From IMG/VR virus record IMGVR_UViG_2541047938_000005: 14,709 nucleotides of DNA; one strand, 5' to 3'. The position numbers and the translations under genes were made by a program. This stretch comes from a virus. Its lineage: Duplodnaviria > Heunggongvirae > Uroviricota > Caudoviricetes. Positions 601 to 14,709 of this stretch are shown piece after piece. Below the pieces are notes generated by a model. The model did no database searches. It was given only the letters and a program-made list of their open reading frames with translations, and was not told where the DNA came from. Numbering within the stretch: the stretch's first letter is position 1; each line of letters opens with the position of its first letter.

Positions 601-890
601 TGGTGAATTTACGTAAAGCGGCTAAAGGCCAGATGTGCCAGATCAGAATCCCTGGCTACTGCAATCACAATCCCGAAACCTCTGTGCTGGCGCATTACAG
701 GCTGGCGGGGACGTGCGGAACAGCGACAAAACCACATGATATGCAGGCGGCGATAGCCTGTAGCTCATGCCACGATCTAATCGACGGGCGGGTAAAAACC
801 AGCGATTACACCAAAGAAGAATTGCGCCTGATGCATGCTGAAGGGGTTTTTCGCACACAAGAAATCTGGAGAAAGAAAGGTCATTTATGA
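600..890 (+). CDS. YbcO-like Cys-rich nin-region protein (DUF1364, putative nuclease)
   Basis: 96 aa; motif MxxLRKAAxGxxCQxRIPGxCNxNPETSVLAH and CxxC pairs match what I recall of DLP12 YbcO. Start overlaps the upstream stop, and its own stop overlaps the Q start (ATGA at 887-890). Confidence 0.75.
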   Translation: MVNLRKAAKGQMCQIRIPGYCNHNPETSVLAHYRLAGTCGTATKPHDMQAAIACSSCHDLIDGRVKTSDYTKEELRLMHAEGVFRTQEIWRKKGHL

Positions 891-1429
891 TTTACCCAAC
901 GAATACAGGAAAAAGCGGAGAACACCTTCGCCTCACCACGCTGGAAAGTGTCTGGATTCAGGGAAAACTACGTATGTGGGGGCGCTGGTCGTATATTGGC
1001 GGTGGCAGGTCAGGGAATATGTTCAATCAGTTGTTGGCATCCAAAAAACTGACGAAAACAGCCATTAATGAAGCCCTGCGCAGAATGAAAAAAGCGGGAA
1101 TAGAGAAAGCTGAGCTGGAAGCGTTTTTGCGAGAGATGATCAACGGCAAGCAAAAGAGCTGGCTGGCGCATTGTACTGATGCAGAGGCGTTATGTATTGA
1201 TCGAGTCATAAGTGAGGTGCTGGCAGAGCATCCAGGATTGATTTGCATTCTCCGGCAACGCTATGAAGGGCGGGGGATGACTAAGCGCAAAATGGCTGAA
1301 TTGCTAAATGATGCACACCCAGAGTGGTGTTTTAGCACATGCGAAAAACGGATTGCTAATTGGTTAGCTGTTGCTGAGTATGCCCTATATATTCCCATGC
1401 GTGAATCATTTGCTGAGAAAATGGCTTGA
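887..1429 (+). CDS. Late-gene antitermination protein Q-like
   Basis: 180 aa, positioned right after nin genes and upstream of terminators and the lysis cassette. C-terminal segment MTKRKMAELLNDAHPEWCFSTCEKRIANWLAVAEYALY looks like a DNA-binding helix region. Family call is positional plus remembered similarity, not a search. Confidence 0.6.
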   Translation: MIYPTNTGKSGEHLRLTTLESVWIQGKLRMWGRWSYIGGGRSGNMFNQLLASKKLTKTAINEALRRMKKAGIEKAELEAFLREMINGKQKSWLAHCTDAEALCIDRVISEVLAEHPGLICILRQRYEGRGMTKRKMAELLNDAHPEWCFSTCEKRIANWLAVAEYALYIPMRESFAEKMA

Positions 1430-1507
1430 TTTCTTACGTATAAACTGCTTCAATTTTGCTATGCTTCGCAAAGCTGTATCGCGAGGCGGATTGCAGACAT
1501 GGACATC

Positions 1508-1538
1508 GTAAAAAAACCGCTTAATGCGGTTTTTTTAC
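1508..1538. terminator. Intrinsic terminator, probably bidirectional
   Basis: A-run (1510-1516), stem AACCGC (1515-1520) / GCGGTT (1526-1531), loop TTAAT, then T-run (1530-1536). About 80 nt downstream of the Q stop. Confidence 0.55.
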
Positions 1539-1856
1539 GTCAGGAAAGCAGGGGAGAATGCTGCTAGTTGGGCAACTGGTCTTTCTGCTCCAAATTATAA
1601 CAGAGACCAGTTATAGTTTCGGTGCTGTGTTTTTTTTACAATATTGTGATAACACATTGCTGGCGGGAGTTTTGATATTTCTTGGCAGGGGCTGATGATG
1701 CGTTATCCTGATGTCGTCAACTCATATAAAATGAGATGAGAGATCATTGCAGGGTGGTTTGTAATTCGCTGTTTAGCGGGACAATATGTTGTCTGATACA
1801 AGACACCCGACGCCTCAGATTACTATAATAAAGACGAAGCATCCTTTGTATTGACC

Positions 1857-1882: not shown

Positions 1883-2414
1883 GGGCTGGTTTATTGTATG
1901 CCAAATGATTATTAAAAAGGTTGTGTTAATAACAAAATCCGAAATAATATGCCTGCATATTTTTATCTTGCTTATATTCTGCATATTGTGCATAGCAGGC
2001 TCATCCCTGCAATCAAAACTGTATGATGAGTATTTTTTGTTTTCCTTTTTTCCAGTCATCTGATGATGACCTGCTTCTTTTTAATCCGGATCGACATCAG
2101 TTTTTTAAGATAATTCCTGCGAGTTATATGCATAAATGCCACAAACTCCGCATTTTATGTGGTTGGGAGTTGCCGGGCGCGCAGTGAGTTTGCTAAGAAA
2201 ACTCCTGCATGGTGAATCCCCCTGTGCGGTGGGGTGATACCATTAACCTTTTCTGTCGCCGACAGGTATCACGAACATTTTGTTCACCGGGAGGCACCCG
2301 GCACCATGCACTTCAATAGATTCTCTCCACATTATGGATATTCTTTCAGAATATCCCACGCAGACTTTGTGTAAATGTTAACAAATGTGCGTTTTATTTG
2401 ATCTGATTCGCTGT

Positions 2415-2444
2415 TTGAGCGTCCAAAACAACGGTATATATAAT
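2415..2444 (+). promoter_or_regulatory. Candidate sigma70 promoter for the lipoprotein moron
   Basis: TTGAGC (2415-2420), 18-bp spacer, TATAAT (2439-2444, within TATATAAT), about 30 nt upstream of the GAGGA RBS at 2466-2470. Hexamer reading only. Confidence 0.3.
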
Positions 2445-2473
2445 CCTTTACTATATGACATATGTGAGGAAAA

Positions 2474-2902
2474 ATGGGTTTTCGTAGCGCATCAATTCTT
2501 ACGTTGATTATTAGTGGGATTATTATCGGGTGCACTGATGCTGTATCGACAAATTATCATGACCGTACATCATATTACTCCGATAAAGCAATAGAGACAC
2601 AGTATGTGAGTTCATCTGAACGTACTTCTGATGTTAGTGAGGATATCCGTCTGTATGCCCATCAAATCAAGAGCGCCATCGAAAAACAGTTCGGGGATGC
2701 GAGTAAGTATTCAGGAAAAGAGTGTACACTGAGAATGCATATGGCCCCGAATGGCCTTCTACTGGAGGTTAAAAGAGAAAGTGGAGACCTCGATTTATGT
2801 CGTGAAGCGATGAATGCGATAAAGAATGCTGATATACCTGCCCCCCCTTCGCCGGAAGTATATAAAGTATTTCAAAATGGGGTGCTGGATTTTAAACCCT
2901 GA
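2474..2902 (+). CDS. Lipoprotein with TolA C-terminal (domain III)-like module
   Basis: 142 aa. RBS GAGGA 2466-2470. N-terminal signal peptide with lipobox IIGC (Cys then Thr at +2, so no Asp Lol-avoidance signal). C-terminal ~85 aa track the TolA C-terminus as I recall it: YAHQIKSAIEKQF / CTLRMHMAPNGLLLEV / DLCREA / IPAPPSPEVYKVF / LDFKP. Confidence 0.8.
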   Translation: MGFRSASILTLIISGIIIGCTDAVSTNYHDRTSYYSDKAIETQYVSSSERTSDVSEDIRLYAHQIKSAIEKQFGDASKYSGKECTLRMHMAPNGLLLEVKRESGDLDLCREAMNAIKNADIPAPPSPEVYKVFQNGVLDFKP

Positions 2903-3052
2903 TATTTATTGTTTTGTAATAAACGGTTTCGGCTTAGGTTTGTTCTGACACAGCTACGGCACTGAGCTAAATTTAGCGGATAGTCAGCTCTGAGCCAGTG
3001 GCGGACGTAACAACTACTATTGCTGAGATTTTAATGGATTGAGGAGCAAGAA

Positions 3053-3448
3053 GTGGGATTAAAGAAAATCGTTATGTTGACTTTTTGGGTCGGTTTTGTT
3101 GCGGGATGCACACCTTTACACCCTTCAGATTGCCACAAAACTACTGCTACAGGTAGTTGCAGTTCAGGACGCTGGGATGATCAGGATGAATGGGGGGCGC
3201 AAGCGCGGGGAATCAGAGCTGCAATTAATGCCAAACTTGATGAGCCGCATAACTGGAAAGGGAAAAAATGCAGGTTGCATATGGAATTCTCTCAGGATGG
3301 CACGGCGTTAAAAATATCTACCAGTAACGGTGATAAAGCCTATTGCGAAGCGATAAAGTCCGCAGCTCATAAAGCCAAATTTCCGGCCTTCAACAATCCG
3401 GAAGTCTACAGAGATTTTCAGAAATCTGGCTTTGACATGCGAGGTTAG
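3053..3448 (+). CDS. Second, divergent lipoprotein with TolA domain III-like C-terminus
   Basis: 131 aa, GTG start 3053 with GAGGAG RBS 3041-3046. Lipobox VAGC with Thr at +2. C-terminus keeps the same scaffold in divergent form (KKCRLHMEFSQDGTALKI ... GDKAYCEAIKSAAHKAKFPAFNNPEVYRDFQ). No obvious terminator between the two genes, so probably co-transcribed. Confidence 0.7.
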   Translation: MGLKKIVMLTFWVGFVAGCTPLHPSDCHKTTATGSCSSGRWDDQDEWGAQARGIRAAINAKLDEPHNWKGKKCRLHMEFSQDGTALKISTSNGDKAYCEAIKSAAHKAKFPAFNNPEVYRDFQKSGFDMRG

Positions 3449-3573
3449 CTCTTCAATTACTATATCTCATTCATAGCAAACTGACAGATTTGATGATGTT
3501 CTATATACGAAACCTGTGATGTCAAGTCTGAGCTAATACAAATAAACATAATATCAGAGAAATACATTTTATT

Positions 3574-3596
3574 AGCTCGCTACGGCGAGCTTTTTA
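3574..3596 (+). terminator. Intrinsic terminator closing the lipoprotein moron
   Basis: Stem AGCTCGC (3574-3580) / GCGAGCT (3585-3591), loop TACG, followed by TTTTT. Confidence 0.5.
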
Positions 3597-3699
3597 TATT
3601 GCATCGTCTCCAGCATATATATCAATTAAGGCTCTGATTGATGTGTCTGAAAGCCTACACATAATAACTATGCCATCCGTTCCGTGCGGAGGTGAGGCT

Positions 3700-3915
3700 A
3701 TGAAATCCATGGACAAAATTTCAACAGGCATTGCCTACGGCACCTCCGCAGGCAGTGCTGGCTACTGGTTTTTACAGTTGCTCGATAGAGTAACTCCGTC
3801 ACAGTGGGCTGCAATCGGTGTGCTGGGTAGTCTGGTATTTGGCCTGCTGACGTACCTGACAAACCTTTATTTCAAGATTAAAGAAGATAAGCGCAAGGCT
3901 GCGAGAGGTGAATAA
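3700..3915 (+). CDS. S: Class II holin (pinholin), phage 21 S-type, with dual-start motif
   Basis: 71 aa: [26 protein letters not shown] ... [20 protein letters not shown]. Two in-frame starts (Met1 at 3700, Met4 at 3709) fit the antiholin/holin pair known for S21. The ORF track's upstream GTG (3643) is probably not the start; GGAGGTGAGG RBS at 3689-3697. Confidence 0.9.
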
Positions 3916-4412
3916 TGCCTCCATCATTACGAAAAGTCGTTGCTGCTGCTATTGGTGGCGGAGCAATTGCTATAGCATCAGTGTTAATCACTGGCCCAAG
4001 TGGTAACGATGGTCTGGAAGGTGTCAGCTACATACCATACAAAGATATTGTTGGTGTATGGACTGTATGTCACGGGCATACAGGAAAAGACATCATGCTC
4101 GGTAAAACGTATACCAAAGCAGAATGCAAAACACTCTTGAATAAAGACCTTGCCACTGTCGCCAGACAAATTAACCCGTACATCAAAGTCGATATACCGG
4201 AAACAACGCGCGGCGCTCTTTACTCATTCGTTTACAACGTGGGTGCTGGCAATTTCAGAACATCGACGCTTCTTCGCAAAATAAACCAGGGCGATATCAA
4301 AGGCGCATGTGATCAGCTACGTCGCTGGACATATGCTGGCGGTAAGCAATGGAAAGGTCTCATGACTCGTCGTGAGATTGAGCGTGAAATCTGTTTGTGG
4401 GGTCAGCAATGA
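3915..4412 (+). CDS. R: SAR (signal-arrest-release) endolysin, phage 21 R-type lysozyme
   Basis: 165 aa. Gly/Ala-rich N-terminal SAR helix ([20 protein letters not shown]), then lysozyme core with the E..D..T catalytic spacing ([24 protein letters not shown]). Start overlaps the S stop (TAATG). Confidence 0.9.
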
Positions 4413-4873
4413 ACAGAGTAACCGCGATTATCTCCGCTCTGGTTATCTGCATCATCGTCTGCCTGTCATGGGCTGTTAATCATTACCGTGATAACGCCAT
4501 TACCTACAAAGCCCAGCGCGACAAAAATGCCAGAGAACTGAAGCTGGCGAACGCGGCAATTACTGACATGCAGATGCGTCAGCGTGATGTTGCTGCGCTC
4601 GATGCAAAATACACGAAGGAGTTAGCTGATGCGAAAGCTGAAAATGATGCTCTGCGTGATGATGTTGCCGCTGGTCGTCGTCGGTTGCACATCAAAGCAG
4701 TCTGTCAGTCAGTGCGTGAAGCCACCACCGCCTCCGGCGTGGATAATGCAGCCTCCCCCCGACTGGCAGACACCGCTGAACGGGATTATTTCACCCTCCG
4801 GGAACGACTGGTAATGATGCAGGCCCAACTTGAAGGTGCTCAGCAATACATAACCGAGCAGTGTTTAAAGTAA
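4409..4873 (+). CDS. Rz: Rz inner-membrane spanin (i-spanin), lambda-type
   Basis: 154 aa from ATG 4409, overlapping the R stop (ATGA). N-terminal TM segment then coiled-coil periplasmic domain; close to lambda Rz as I recall it. Confidence 0.9.
4629..4814 (+). CDS. Rz1: Rz1 outer-membrane lipoprotein spanin (o-spanin), embedded in Rz in the +1 frame
   Basis: 61 aa: [20 protein letters not shown] (lipobox) followed by a proline-rich segment [23 protein letters not shown] about 8 nt upstream. Fully nested in Rz as in lambda. Confidence 0.85.
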
Positions 4874-5010
4874 AATCTTAACTACAATATGATTCATTTT
4901 GATGATTGTTTCATAAGGAACAGTGAAGTAAGATCTAAGAGGAGTTAAATTTTATACAGTATAATCATAATATTGCAGCAAGGTGGTTATAATTGAAAGA
5001 ATATTTAGAT

Positions 5011-6468
5011 ATGAATACATCTCATGTAAGAGTTGTTACTCATATGTGTGGGTTCCTGGTTTGGCTCTATAGTCTTTCAATGTTGCCACCAATGGTTGTA
5101 GCATTGTTTTATAAAGAAAAAAGCCTGTTCGTTTTCTTTATAACTTTCGTTATATTTTTTTGCATTGGTGGCGGAGCGTGGTATACAACTAAGAAATCTG
5201 GCATTCAATTACGTACCCGTGATGGGTTTATTATAATTGTAATGTTTTGGATTTTGTTTTCTGTTATTAGTGCATTCCCTTTATGGATTGACTCAGAACT
5301 TAATTTAACGTTCATTGATGCTCTGTTTGAAGGGGTTTCTGGAATAACAACAACAGGAGCAACTGTAATTGATGATGTTAGTTCATTACCTCGGGCATAT
5401 TTGTACTATCGGTCACAGTTAAATTTTATAGGTGGTTTAGGAGTTATTGTTCTGGCGGTTGCAGTATTGCCATTATTGGGTATTGGTGGTGCAAAGCTTT
5501 ATCAGTCAGAAATGCCGGGGCCATTTAAGGATGACAAACTCACTCCCCGCCTGGCCGATACGTCACGGACACTGTGGATAACTTATTCTTTATTAGGTAT
5601 TGCTTGTATTGTCTGTTATAGACTTGCAGGAATGCCTTTGTTTGATGCTATTTGTCACGGGATTTCCACAGTTTCGCTTGGTGGTTTCTCAACTCATAGC
5701 GAGAGTATCGGATATTTTAATAACTATTTGGTTGAGCTGGTGGCTGGTTCTTTTTCCCTGCTATCGGCTTTCAACTTCACTCTTTGGTATATTGTTATTA
5801 GCAGAAAAACGATAAAACCTTTAATCAGAGATATTGAACTTCGTTTCTTTCTGTTAATAGCCTTAGGGGTGATCATTGTTACCTCTTTCCAGGTCTGGCA
5901 TATAGGTATGTATGACTTGCATGGAAGTTTTATTCATTCGTTTTTTCTTGCCAGCTCCATGCTCACTGATAATGGTTTAGCTACGCAGGATTATGCAAAC
6001 TGGCCCACGCACACGATAGTGTTTTTGCTGTTGTCAAGTTTCTTTGGGGGATGTATAGGTTCAACCTGTGGTGGAATTAAGTCACTTCGATTTCTTATAC
6101 TTTTCAAACAAAGCAAACACGAGATAAATCAGCTTTCTCATCCCAGAGCGTTGTTGAGTGTAAATGTAGGAGGGAAGATAGTTACAGATCGTGTAATGAG
6201 GTCTGTATGGAGTTTCTTTTTTCTTTATACTCTCTTCACGGTGTTTTTTATACTGGTGTTAAATGGTATGGGATATGATTTTCTTACATCATTTGCAACA
6301 GTGGCTGCATGTATTAATAATATGGGATTAGGTTTTGGGGCTACTGCATCGTCATTCGGAGTGCTTAATGACATTGCAAAATATTTAATGTGCATAGCTA
6401 TGATTCTTGGTCGCCTTGAAATTTATCCTGTTATTATATTGTTTTCAGGTTTTTTTTGGCGCTCCTAA
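5011..6468 (+). CDS. trkG: Trk-system K+ uptake protein TrkG (TrkH/KtrB family)
   Basis: 485 aa from ATG 5011 (MNTSHVRVV...). Multi-pass membrane protein with repeated pore-loop-like glycine motifs (GITTTG, IGGLG, VSLGGF, TCGGIKS). Visibly AT-rich compared with flanking phage genes. trkG is an established Rac cargo gene. Confidence 0.9.
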   Translation: MNTSHVRVVTHMCGFLVWLYSLSMLPPMVVALFYKEKSLFVFFITFVIFFCIGGGAWYTTKKSGIQLRTRDGFIIIVMFWILFSVISAFPLWIDSELNLTFIDALFEGVSGITTTGATVIDDVSSLPRAYLYYRSQLNFIGGLGVIVLAVAVLPLLGIGGAKLYQSEMPGPFKDDKLTPRLADTSRTLWITYSLLGIACIVCYRLAGMPLFDAICHGISTVSLGGFSTHSESIGYFNNYLVELVAGSFSLLSAFNFTLWYIVISRKTIKPLIRDIELRFFLLIALGVIIVTSFQVWHIGMYDLHGSFIHSFFLASSMLTDNGLATQDYANWPTHTIVFLLLSSFFGGCIGSTCGGIKSLRFLILFKQSKHEINQLSHPRALLSVNVGGKIVTDRVMRSVWSFFFLYTLFTVFFILVLNGMGYDFLTSFATVAACINNMGLGFGATASSFGVLNDIAKYLMCIAMILGRLEIYPVIILFSGFFWRS

Positions 6469-6605
6469 TATATGGCTGATTTATAATTGTGAGTTTAATA
6501 TTATGTTGACTCACTCATTGATCCAATACCTAACTTTACCAGCAACACCTCCGCCCCCAGTAGCACTGGCTGCTGGGGTGCGTTTTATTCATAAAGCAAG
6601 GCTGT

Positions 6606-7659
6606 ATGAGCGAGAAATTAAAGATAGTCTATCGCCCATTACAAGAATTGTCACCGTATGCGCACAACGCCAGGACGCACAGTACTGAGCAGGTGGCACA
6701 ACTGGTAGAAAGTATTAAGCAATTCGGCTGGACTAATCCGGTGCTGATTGACGAAAAGGGCGAAATTATTGCGGGTCACGGTCGTGTTATGGCGGCTGAA
6801 ATGCTCAAAATGGATTCTGTTCCGGTCATTGTTCTGTCTGGCCTGACGGATGAGCAGAAAAAGGCGTACCGCCTGGCAGATAATCGCCTGCCGATGAATG
6901 CTGGCTGGGATGAAGATCTGTTGCGGATGGAGCTGTCGGACCTAATCAATGCTGATTTTGATGTCTCCCTGACAGGCTTCATCCCGGCAGAAATTGATGA
7001 ACTGTTGACGGATGTTTTGCCCGGTACAGGAAATGAGGAGGAGCCGTATACGACGAAAATTGATACGCCTGTTTATGAGCCGTCAGGCGGTAAACCGGAT
7101 ATCAGTGAACTGTACGACGATACGAAAACTCAGGAGCTGATCAGCCGGATACGTTCGGCGTCCCTTGAATCATCTCTACCAGTGGCGCGATATAGCAGAA
7201 TTCGACAAGGCAGCGGCGCAGGCTTCCAGAGATGGCAAACCCGAACCGGAATATGGAGGCCTCGGCTTTGTTGATAACGCCATACCCAATCCGGACTGCC
7301 CGAAGTGCTGCGGTGAGGGAACGGGACAGCTTTATATGGCTGATACCACTCTGCTTGATGGGGATGCGCGGCAATTATATGCAGGGGCAAAATTCGGAAA
7401 ATTCGGCGTTGAGATCCTGCTGGAGGATAAGGCTGCCGCCCGGCGTGAATTGTTGCGTTTGTTTTCTGCTGGCGGGGCTTTATGTGCAGATAAGCGGCTA
7501 CGGGAACTGGAAATTGAACGGCGCAGAATGGAAAACCAGAAGCTGCGCAAAGAGATCGAAACGGTGGAAGATAATGAACATCCCCAGCCTGTGGCGATCA
7601 ATATTAATGTGGTTGATGCCAGAGTAAGGAGTGATGAAGATGATCTCTCCGACGCTTAA
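6606..7659 (+). pseudogene. ParB-like N-terminal domain protein (candidate small terminase subunit), reading frame disrupted near 7141-7170
   Basis: Frame 0 ORF 6606-7274 begins with a ParB N-terminal domain-like sequence (LKIVYRPLQELSPYAHNARTHS ... IIAGHGR). A +1 frame ORF is open from 7141 and runs to 7659, ending in a coiled-coil/acidic tail. A one-base shift near 7164-7168 would join them into ~350 aa. Could be a true frameshift, a sequencing error or programmed. Confidence 0.5.
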
Positions 7660-8943: not shown

Positions 8944-9883
8944 ATGGCTGATATATCAACACCCAACCTCGACTATAACGATATGCTGGAGGCGTGGGAT
9001 ATTAACGACGCACTGATGGGCGGTACGCTTGAAATGCGCAGGCAGGGGGAAAATTATCTCCCAAAATGGCCTAACGAAGATGAAGACGCTTATAAAAAAC
9101 GCCTGTCTGTGGCTACGCTACTTCCTGTGTATGAAGAAAGCATCAAGCAAAATATTGGGCGCATATTTGCAGAGCCGACAGTATTGAGTGAGGAAACGCC
9201 GGCAAAAATCAGGGAATATGCAGAAAATATCGACATGGAGGGGAGCCGACTGGATGTGTGGGCGCAGCAATTTTTCAGCCTCGCATTTCAGTATGGTGTG
9301 GCACATGCGCTGGTGGACTATCCACGAACGGATATGAAAGAGATTCGGACAAAAGCCGATGAAAACGCGACCGGTGGAGGGATTCAATATTCACAGTTCG
9401 GCAGGTGTGAAACGAGCGCCAAAGGTTGCTGCAACTGGTTATCTCGTGAATGGAGAGAAAAAAGAAGGCGATGTTCTTATTTCCATTGATACTGGTTCGG
9501 GGAGTATTTCTGCAGGTCAGATTGTTACGTTCGCTGGTGATCCGAATCAGTATGTTGTGGCAGCAGCGACCAGCAATCTGATTACTCTTGCAGCGCCCGG
9601 ACTGCGTCAGGATCTGGCCGATGATACTGCCATCACAGTTGTTGGGGCCTTTACTGCAAATATGGCGTTTGATCGCAACGCGTTTCTGCTGGCATCCCGT
9701 ACTCCGGCAATGCCGGAAGGTGGCGATAATGCTGATGATGTAATGAATGTTACGGACCCGATTTCAGGGATTACGTTCCAGATTGCACTGTATCGTCAGT
9801 ATCGCCAGGTGCGCTATGAAGTTGGACTGGCATGGGGTGTTTCATCAGTGAAGCCGGCACATGGTTGTCTGATTCTTGGTTAA
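8944..9883 (+). pseudogene. Head-module remnant: 5' part of a head gene (tentatively portal-like) joined out of frame to the 3' part of a capsid-like gene
   Basis: ORF 8944-9489 ends in junk-like residues; the next frame (open through 9883) carries a C-terminus with an HK97-fold-capsid-like motif (RTPAMPEGG) and is followed by a strong terminator. No full-length portal, protease or capsid gene sits between TerL and the head-tail genes. Domain identities are tentative. Confidence 0.4.
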
Positions 9884-14125: not shown

Positions 14126-14709
14126 TGGCATTCAGAATGAGTGAACAACCACGGACCATAAAAATTTATAATCTGCTGGCCGGAACTAATGAATTTATTG
14201 GTGAAGGTGATGCATATATTCCGCCTCATACAGGTCTGCCAGCAAACAGTACCGATATTGCACCGCCAGATATTCCGGCTGGCTTCGTGGCTGTTTTCAA
14301 CAGTGATGAGTCATCGTGGCATCTCGTTGAAGATCATCGGGGTAAAACGGTTTATGACGTGGCTTCCGGCGACGCGTTATTTATTTCTGAACTCGGTCCG
14401 TTACCGGAAAATGTTACCTGGTTATCGCCGGAAGGGGAGTTTCAGAAGTGGAACGGCACAGCCTGGGTGAAGGATACGGAAGCAGAAAAACTGTTCCGGA
14501 TCCGGGAGGCGGAAGAAACAAAAAACAACCTGATGCAGGTAGCCAGTGAGCATATTGCGCCGCTTCAGGATGCTGCAGATCTGGAAATTGCAACGGAGGA
14601 AGAAATCTCGTTGCTGGAAGCATGGAAAAAGTATCGGGTATTGCTGAACCGTGTTGATACGTCAACTGCACCTGATATTGAGTGGCCTACGAACCCTGTC
14701 AGGGAGTAA
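14125..14709 (+). CDS. tfa: Tail fiber assembly protein (Tfa)
   Basis: 194 aa beginning [34 protein letters not shown], characteristic of lambdoid Tfa/TfaR-type chaperones. Start overlaps the stf stop (TAATG). Stop codon is at the window end. Confidence 0.9.

Follow-up and report, generated by a model that had tools for sequence, protein, structure and literature searches.

Tandem lipoproteins with a TolA domain III fold in the late region of a lambdoid prophage: candidate TolA decoys

Why should a prophage carry, beside its lysis genes, two lipoproteins that resemble one domain of its host's own Tol-Pal machinery? The question is raised by the late region of a lambdoid (Rac-like) E. coli prophage in IMG/VR record IMGVR_UViG_2541047938_000005 (Caudoviricetes), of which we analysed the whole 14,709-nucleotide stretch, referred to here as the window. 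Two genes, here called A and B, lie in tandem between a Q-like antiterminator gene and the genes for holin, lysozyme and Rz/Rz1. A reading of the DNA letters without database searches (the original prediction) had described their products as lipobox lipoproteins ending in TolA domain III (TolAIII) and had placed them in the Q-to-S cargo slot; the reading frames and the slot are as described. TolAIII is the point through which group A colicins and filamentous phages alike gain entry, and also the point at which force acts on TolB-Pal. We find that both proteins carry the TolAIII fold behind a lipoprotein signal peptide, and tentatively propose that they may act as decoys of TolA.

TolA domain III behind a lipobox

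The original prediction had proposed checking the likeness by profile search and by superposition of predicted structures, and both bear it out. The Pfam family of the TolA C terminus (PF06519; gathering score 25 bits) matches A at 82.6 bits (E 2.4e-23) and B at 54.6 bits (E 1.3e-14), far above the gathering score. Residues 55–142 of A align without a gap to residues 334–421 of E. coli TolA, through its last residue, at about 60% identity (PDB sequences, E 5e-28). B is about 32% identical to the TolAIII sequences of E. coli in the PDB (E 5e-9), and A shares 29% identity with B. AlphaFold 2 (AF2) models, built on 49-sequence alignments, have a predicted local distance difference test (pLDDT) score of about 90 over the domain in both proteins and below 50 over the signal peptide and linker. 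In Foldseek, the A model fits 2x9a_B with a target-normalised template-modelling (TM) score of 0.96 and a root mean square deviation of 0.6 Å, and the B model fits 3qdp (TM 0.92, 1.1 Å); TonB C-terminal domains come next, far behind TolAIII. The disulfide pair of the domain (C363/C388 in TolA) is invariant, as C84/C109 in A and C73/C98 in B. Since fold and profile match are both present, the likeness stands, and the nearest known structure is TolAIII of the E. coli Tol-Pal system (PDB 1TOL, 2X9A, 3QDP/3QDR and 1S62). The BFVD library of viral structures holds no significant match to the TolAIII fold.

Neither protein has the architecture of a full-length TolA, their 142 and 131 residues comparing with 421. 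The NCBIfam TolA equivalogs match A and B only over the last ~95 positions of the models: NF007065 gives 107.8 bits (A) and 53.7 bits (B) against a cut-off of 213, whereas A passes TIGR02794 (75.6 against 59.45). This explains why the Prokaryotic Genome Annotation Pipeline (PGAP) labels A 'tolA', an over-annotation. Both genes lie outside the tolQ-tolR-tolA-tolB-pal operon, and their neighbours are phage Q, holin, lysozyme and Rz genes. Other family matches are a marginal TonB_2 hit for A and PHROG 5772 ('unknown function'); the genes are already known in annotation only, through this family and the domain names given by PGAP.

What replaces the rest of TolA is a lipoprotein signal peptide and a short tether. 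A starts with ATG, with GAGG four bases upstream; B starts with GTG, PGAP placing its start at an ATG at 3074. The signal peptides, MGFRSASILTLIISGIIIGC in A and MGLKKIVMLTFWVGFVAGC in B, were tested for a positively charged n-region, a hydrophobic h-region and a lipobox of the form [LVI][ASTVI][GAS]C near residue 20. A has R4, then ILTLIISGIII and the lipobox IIGC20; B has K4 and K5, then IVMLTFWVGFV and VAGC19. In both, the residue at position +2 is Thr. Because it is not Asp, the +2 rule predicts sorting to the outer membrane, and A and B are accordingly putative outer-membrane lipoproteins. The tether between lipid Cys and domain spans 26–34 residues in the two proteins. Both lack the membrane anchor (domain I) and the long helical domain II of TolA, and therefore cannot couple to the TolQ-TolR motor; unlike TolA, they would receive no force from it.

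The two tethers differ in kind. That of A (residues 21–54) is rich in Ser, Thr and Tyr and disordered. That of B (residues 20–45; window positions 3110–3187) follows the pattern C-x-PLHPS-x-CHKTTATGSCSSGRWDDQDEWG, which is nearly invariant across genera, and carries two extra conserved cysteines in a region of low AF2 confidence. A functional role, for instance as a disulfide loop or binding site, is more likely for it than that of a passive tether.

We next compared the edges by which TolAIII receives its ligands. Strand β3 of TolA (L417–K420) is the strand-augmentation site for the N1 domain of the filamentous-phage protein g3p (pIII), for colicin N (ColN) and for the TolB N terminus; backbone hydrogen bonds link D418 and K420 to g3p-N1, and neither ColN, g3p nor TolB binds once either residue is changed to proline (D418P, K420P; PMC4339652). 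The colicin A (ColA) site comprises β2 (L375–P380) together with K368, L392 and K396 (PMC3365938). Residues were mapped through gapless alignments, in which the TolA number equals that of A plus 279 and that of B plus 290. β3 of A reads LDFKP (TolA 417–421), identical to TolA. At the ColA site, A has L, L, E, V, K and R in place of L375–P380, H at 368, M at 392 and K at 396, and so keeps most ColA-contact residues. With LDFKP identical and the ColA site mostly kept, A closely imitates TolAIII of the host at both edges. In B, β3 reads F-D-M-R-G, with the Asp and the β-forming residues kept. Its ColA site has A, L, K, I, S and T, then E at 368, K at 392 and H at 396; all three cation-π lysines are gone (replaced by E, S and H) and the colicin A site is lost. 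To judge by these substitutions, the ligand range of B probably differs from that of A.

Two cassettes and a wider family

The original prediction treated A and B as a single system. They prove to be separable, each being found without the other, and are two independent cassettes of different lineages stacked in tandem. Phage mEp460_ev081 has only 2283–3916 in common with the window, which comprises A, B and the holin gene; its Q and lysis genes are different. Two prophages (L019 and L020) share 1801–2903, a segment that ends exactly at the stop codon of A, and are without B; their Q genes are of two types, the one in L020 being the same as the window's. Plasmids share only 3023–3451, that is, gene B and 30 nucleotides upstream, at 87% identity. 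In IMG/VR the A-B-holin module occurs in 38 loci with at least two lysis backgrounds, a 65–74% variant of A alone in 23 loci, and a B-like gene alone near a contig end in 19 loci. Among the IMG/VR contigs, 18 (L086–L103) carry a lone B-like gene (83–88%) about 1 kb from the contig end. Enterobacter has a chromosomal B gene, so these copies may be host flanks inside prophage calls rather than phage cargo.

A stands in a prophage cargo slot in every context examined, and in other prophages it occupies the Q–S slot alone. In an O113:H21 prophage of Shiga toxin-producing E. coli (STEC), a variant of A follows tRNA-Ile and tRNA-Arg genes and precedes the esterase gene nanS-p; this is exactly the position of stx, as the comparison drawn in the original prediction would have it. 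B, which that prediction framed as phage cargo, is not confined to phages: homologues (87%) are found on about 600 plasmids (pO157; IncK2/Z) and in Enterobacter chromosomes. On pO157 the B-type gene lies in the leading region, between hok/psiA and toxB, on IncK2/Z plasmids 68 nucleotides past the nikAB relaxase genes, and on a Klebsiella IncFII plasmid next to repA. The chromosomal context in Enterobacter is conserved and non-mobile, and in Pantoea the gene adjoins a TonB-dependent receptor gene.

Some plasmid copies of B have redox genes nearby. On the Klebsiella IncFII plasmid (L014–L016) a thioredoxin-like gene is the immediate downstream neighbour of the B-type gene, and on IncK2/Z plasmids (L002/L024) a DsbC family/TrbB gene lies a few kilobases downstream. 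Because the B family has four non-lipid cysteines, a functional link between B and these thiol-disulfide oxidoreductases is possible.

The A-B pair is present at ≥99% identity in 774 of 5,426 complete E. coli genomes (14%), and some part of the queried region in 1,344 of them (25%). Other variants of A are carried by at least 136 genomes, including many STEC. The A family comprises 46 clusters, confined to Escherichia and Shigella, and the B family 370 clusters in Citrobacter, Enterobacter, Serratia, Klebsiella, Raoultella and Pantoea; all 120 B homologues checked among those listed have a lipobox. A profile search of 1.84 billion representatives returned 585 relatives, and family detail comes from 148 newly retrieved sequences among the best 150 of these. 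Ninety-five of the 148 are at most 170 residues long; 63 of the 95 have a lipobox, and in none of the 63 is the +2 residue Asp. TolAIII-only lipoproteins are thus a large and diverse family annotated by domain only. In a rough neighbour-joining tree, B falls within a deep clade of lipoproteins, and A lies among diverse small lipoproteins near the clade of true TolA; among the sequences compared, the closest relative of A outside its own family is E. coli TolA.

Both genes are under purifying selection and are functional genes, not tolA debris. Pairwise Nei-Gojobori estimates of the ratio of non-synonymous to synonymous substitution rates (dN/dS, ω) are 0.26–0.36 between A lineages (0.09–0.29 over the domain, 0.35–0.59 over the linker). 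For B, ω is 0.08–0.15 (domain 0.08, linker 0.10) at dS of 0.4–1.1. The linker of B is therefore as constrained as its domain, which suggests a specific interaction.

A possible decoy and its alternatives

What might such proteins do? We lean, at somewhat short of an even call, towards A and B being outer-membrane-tethered TolA decoys against toxins and phages that enter through TolA, a reading drawn from their sequences and gene contexts. On induction, A and B would be made from the late transcript, and in the lysogen from their candidate promoter up to the terminator-like hairpin (Table 1). The Lol pathway would sort both to the inner leaflet of the outer membrane, placing the TolAIII domain in the outer periplasm beside incoming colicin translocation domains, g3p-N1 and TolB-Pal. 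Uncoupled from force, the mimics could capture ligands of TolAIII by β-strand augmentation; group A colicins or bacteriocins and filamentous-phage pIII would be held in dead-end complexes and the carrier cell would be tolerant. A would cover ligands of both edges, that is, those of β3 (ColN, g3p, TolB N terminus) and β2 (ColA), and B, from an older separate lineage with altered edges, would cover another set. Affinities for TolA are 1 μM for ColN and 40 μM for TolB; the latter being the weaker, a modest amount of decoy could intercept invaders while sparing Tol-Pal.

Plasmid-borne B, near an IncK/I relaxase gene, would shield piliated cells from filamentous phages that are specific for the pilus and have TolA as their coreceptor. 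For the I-pilus phage IF1 the coreceptor is TolAIII (PDB 2X9A), and the place of B behind an I-complex relaxase is suggestive of a link to IF1-type phages. A broader version of the proposal is that TolA-mimic decoys form a widespread, unrecognised immunity of mobile elements, in which two diverged copies widen the spectrum, a further ~60 TolAIII-only clusters are species-specific versions, and the plasmid copy, maybe co-transcribed with the IncK/I relaxase, shields donors from If1-like phages. This wider claim we hold to be doubtful.

Several known systems bear on the idea. Superinfection exclusion by pIII acts at the same entry step, TolAIII docking, which is blocked by a stoichiometric periplasmic complex, and also brings cross-resistance to colicin A; periplasmic pIII-N1 confers colicin A resistance and lowers phage uptake by 4 logs (PMC10424213). 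The polarity is reversed, since pIII masks the host receptor whereas A and B would imitate the receptor and mask the invader, and pIII has no sequence or fold relationship to them. TolAIII uncoupled from TolQR in the periplasm, as we propose for A and B, also has a laboratory-made counterpart from 1993, which was artificial, soluble and overexpressed, whereas A and B are natural, lipid-anchored, diverged and borne by mobile elements. Exported TolAIII reportedly led to colicin tolerance and leakiness in the hands of Levengood-Freyermuth, Click and Webster (1993, J Bacteriol). Cor (phi80/N15), Llp (T5) and TraT (F) are receptor-blocking lipoproteins that inactivate an outer-membrane receptor (FhuA, OmpA). 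They too are small outer-membrane lipoprotein cargo protecting the carrier from incoming phages and colicins, a functional likeness that is hypothetical for A and B. They differ in not being copies of a host domain and have no Pfam, PHROG or PADLOC link to A or B, whose sub-threshold matches include none related to Cor, Llp or TraT. Protective lipoprotein cargo acting by receptor mimicry rather than receptor blocking would be new.

The genomic setting is compatible with cargo of this sort. Accessory mobile contexts such as the Q–S slot with several Q types, the stx position, pO157, IncK2/Z next to nikAB and IncFII are typical of protective cargo, and we count for the decoy reading that A and B are intact in the window although head genes have been deleted. 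The Q–S slot is known for morons, namely stx of Stx phages and nmpC of DLP12. A and B share with these the slot, a G+C content below that of the flanks, promoter-like and terminator-like sites, and presence/absence polymorphism, and differ in that the cargo is a mimic of a host domain, not a toxin or porin.

Other observations weigh against a decoy. No defence-protein model of PADLOC-DB matches A or B at E up to 1, and among 50,697 deposited phage genomes only one, mEp460_ev081, carries them. In two other A lineages, whose upstream regions are not alignable, there is no equivalent consensus promoter. The outer-membrane location is predicted from the +2 rule alone, and a decoy that binds β3 ligands would also take the TolB N terminus and could harm the envelope. 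The B-type genes of Enterobacter and Pantoea stand in ordinary chromosomal neighbourhoods, which fit a housekeeping role in the envelope equally well. Finally, full-text searches of open-access papers found no functional, expression or binding study of A or B, an absence that is not proof; the original prediction likewise knew of no characterised system of this kind.

An alternative is that A and B interfere with Tol-Pal on behalf of the phage. Made late from the Q-dependent transcript, they would compete with TolA for the TolB N terminus, loosen the outer membrane and aid lysis or the release of virions or toxin. Their position fits, directly upstream of the holin gene and downstream of Q and a tR'-like terminator, and A, B and holin travel as one module (2283–3916) into different Q and lysis backgrounds. 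Moreover, A retains the TolB-binding β3, loss of TolA–TolB binding produces the full leaky tol phenotype (PMC4339652), and modulating TolB interactions is one suggested way of regulating vesicle production (PMC7391070). However, plasmid and chromosomal homologues have no lysis genes nearby, the A-B unit has its own promoter-like site and terminator, the TolA–TolB interaction is so weak that large amounts would be required, and Rz/Rz1 spanins are already there. We consider such interference unlikely, as we do the blebbing, vesicles and leakage that it would entail.

Two further explanations set no store by invaders. A and B could belong to an old family of periplasmic adaptors with an envelope function of their own, which would engage a different partner by strand augmentation and two of which the phage carries as host-fitness cargo. 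The size and diversity of the family of short lipobox proteins, the deep clade of B with chromosomal members in Enterobacter and Pantoea, the constraint on the B linker and the ColA-site residues of B, which are not TolA-like, all speak for this. It is at odds with the close mimicry of host TolAIII by A at both ligand edges, the restriction of A to prophage cargo slots of Escherichia and Shigella, the repeated capture of B by plasmids and phages, and gene neighbourhoods that offer no candidate partner. We judge it improbable; on this reading it is above all B that would have a partner unrelated to colicins or phages. Alternatively, the genes might be tolA fragments left by illegitimate recombination and mis-called as genes, for which one could cite the plain 'tolA' label of A and the many truncated variants in databases. 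Debris would hardly have bona fide lipoprotein signal peptides in both proteins, which TolA lacks, intact open reading frames with good ribosome-binding sites, conserved disulfide cysteines and maintenance across several genera; dN/dS of 0.08–0.36 over dS of 0.4–1.1 contradicts it, and we rejected it as wholly implausible.

If A and B are decoys, mobile elements would have a new means of changing how a cell responds to bacteriocins and phages or how its envelope behaves, and colicin-based and phage-based antimicrobials and M13-based tools would be affected in natural isolates. The standard K-12 strains presumably lack the A and B genes. A decoy role would also give a function to a large family annotated by domain only, with A mis-annotated as 'tolA'.

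Transcription signals and neighbouring features

The features of the cargo slot and its flanks are collected in Table 1. The gene order of the window starts with DUF1367, YbcO and the Q-like gene, followed by about 1 kb without long open reading frames. It continues with A, B, a P21-type holin gene, lysozyme, Rz/Rz1, a trkG-like transporter gene, a ParB-like gene, terminase, and head and tail genes. The G+C content is 40–46% in the A-B region and 48–55% in the flanking phage genes. The Q–S slot of the window contains no tRNA genes, although related loci have them.

Table 1. Positions of genes and signals in and around the A-B cargo slot of the window
Feature	Position	Strand	Evidence and remarks
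Q-like late antiterminator gene (DUF1133/Phage_antitermQ)	887..1429	+	Pfam PF06576 2.5e-107, PF06530 8.6e-06; left neighbour of cargo slot
tR'-like intrinsic terminator	1507..1539	+	perfect 14-nt inverted repeat CGTAAAAAAACCGC/GCGGTTTTTTTACG, then T7; just after Q
STnc100 prophage small RNA element	2177..2363	+	Rfam RF02076, 86.6 bits (gathering score 47); directly upstream of A
Candidate sigma-70 promoter of A-B unit	2415..2444	+	TTGAGC-18-TATAAT; 10/12 consensus match only
Gene A (142 residues)	2474..2902	+	lipid Cys20 (nt 2531-2533); linker 21-54; predicted TolA domain III 55-142 (nt 2636-2899)
Shine-Dalgarno GAGGAG of gene B	3041..3046	+	sequence; 6 nt before GTG start
Gene B (131 residues)	3053..3448	+	lipid Cys19 (nt 3107-3109); linker 20-45; predicted TolA domain III 46-131 (nt 3188-3445)
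Terminator-like hairpin closing A-B unit	3574..3596	+	AGCTCGC-TACG-GCGAGCT (3574-3591), then TTTTATATT; pattern match
P21-type class II holin gene (EssD-like)	3700..3915	+	Pfam PF04971 2e-35
Lysozyme gene	3915-4412	+	right-hand lysis cassette 3915..4873 (Pfam PF00959, PF03245, PF06085)
Rz gene	4397-4873	+	embedded Rz1 lipoprotein 4629-4814; same lysis cassette

The late promoter PR' probably lies within about 1430–1488; homology with L020, the prophage with the same Q, extends to 1488. Since A and B lie 3' of Q and the tR'-like terminator, they should be read late by Q-modified polymerase. The original prediction had also given the pair a promoter and terminator of its own. A scan recovered both sites on the + strand, as consensus matches only, so that the A-B unit resembles a two-gene moron with a predicted promoter and terminator. 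The −10 element of the candidate promoter sits about 30 nucleotides before the ATG of A, a good geometry, and within 3.6 kb only one other site reaches 10/12. Between 1400 and 5000, 14 promoter-like sites were observed against 8.0±2.5 expected from shuffles, a modest excess, and four terminator-like sites against 2.6±1.7. The candidate promoter lies inside the segments common to phage mEp460_ev081 (2283–3916) and to L019/L020 (2097–2903), and is conserved solely in the closest sub-lineage. The closing hairpin has a 7-bp stem with five G-C pairs and is followed by a T-run; the scan found no terminator-like site between A and B. A lead on expression was discarded: 'EDL933_2012 (TolA)' of CP-933O is 32-fold induced by ciprofloxacin, but the supplement says only 'tail fiber protein', and no homology could be demonstrated.

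The 3' hairpin of the STnc100 element in the window is without the usual U-run. In related loci, STnc100 copies bracket the TolAIII gene; they lie at 4704–4877, 5599–5803 and 5854–6061 in L020, at 6586–6798 and 8558–9537 in L013, and at 3874–4064 in L003. In those loci, the 'terminators' downstream of A are 3' hairpins of STnc100 elements. Such repeats may serve as joints for the exchange of cargo cassettes, or as a source of read-through transcription into A.

Directly after the lysis cassette, at 4993–6468, lies a second moron, the trkG-like potassium transporter gene (Pfam TrkH, 1e-144), of very low G+C content (33–43%), like that of the Rac prophage. Two internal segments that are present in the intact Rac-like prophage of E. 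coli SE11, about 1.9 kb and 3.7 kb long, have been cleanly deleted from the window, with joints at 7167–7168 and about 9375–9377. The first deletion joins the ParB-like gene to the gene for the terminase small subunit; the second takes most of the portal, minor head protein and scaffold and the N terminus of the capsid protein. This double-deletion arrangement occurs in one piece in no complete genome of the collection. Head assembly is defective in this prophage, while everything from Q to trkG, with the TolAIII and lysis genes between them, is intact. At the right end of the window, a match to the Rfam small RNA family IS009 (14468–14666, + strand, 220.9 bits) lies within a tail-fibre-assembly-like gene.

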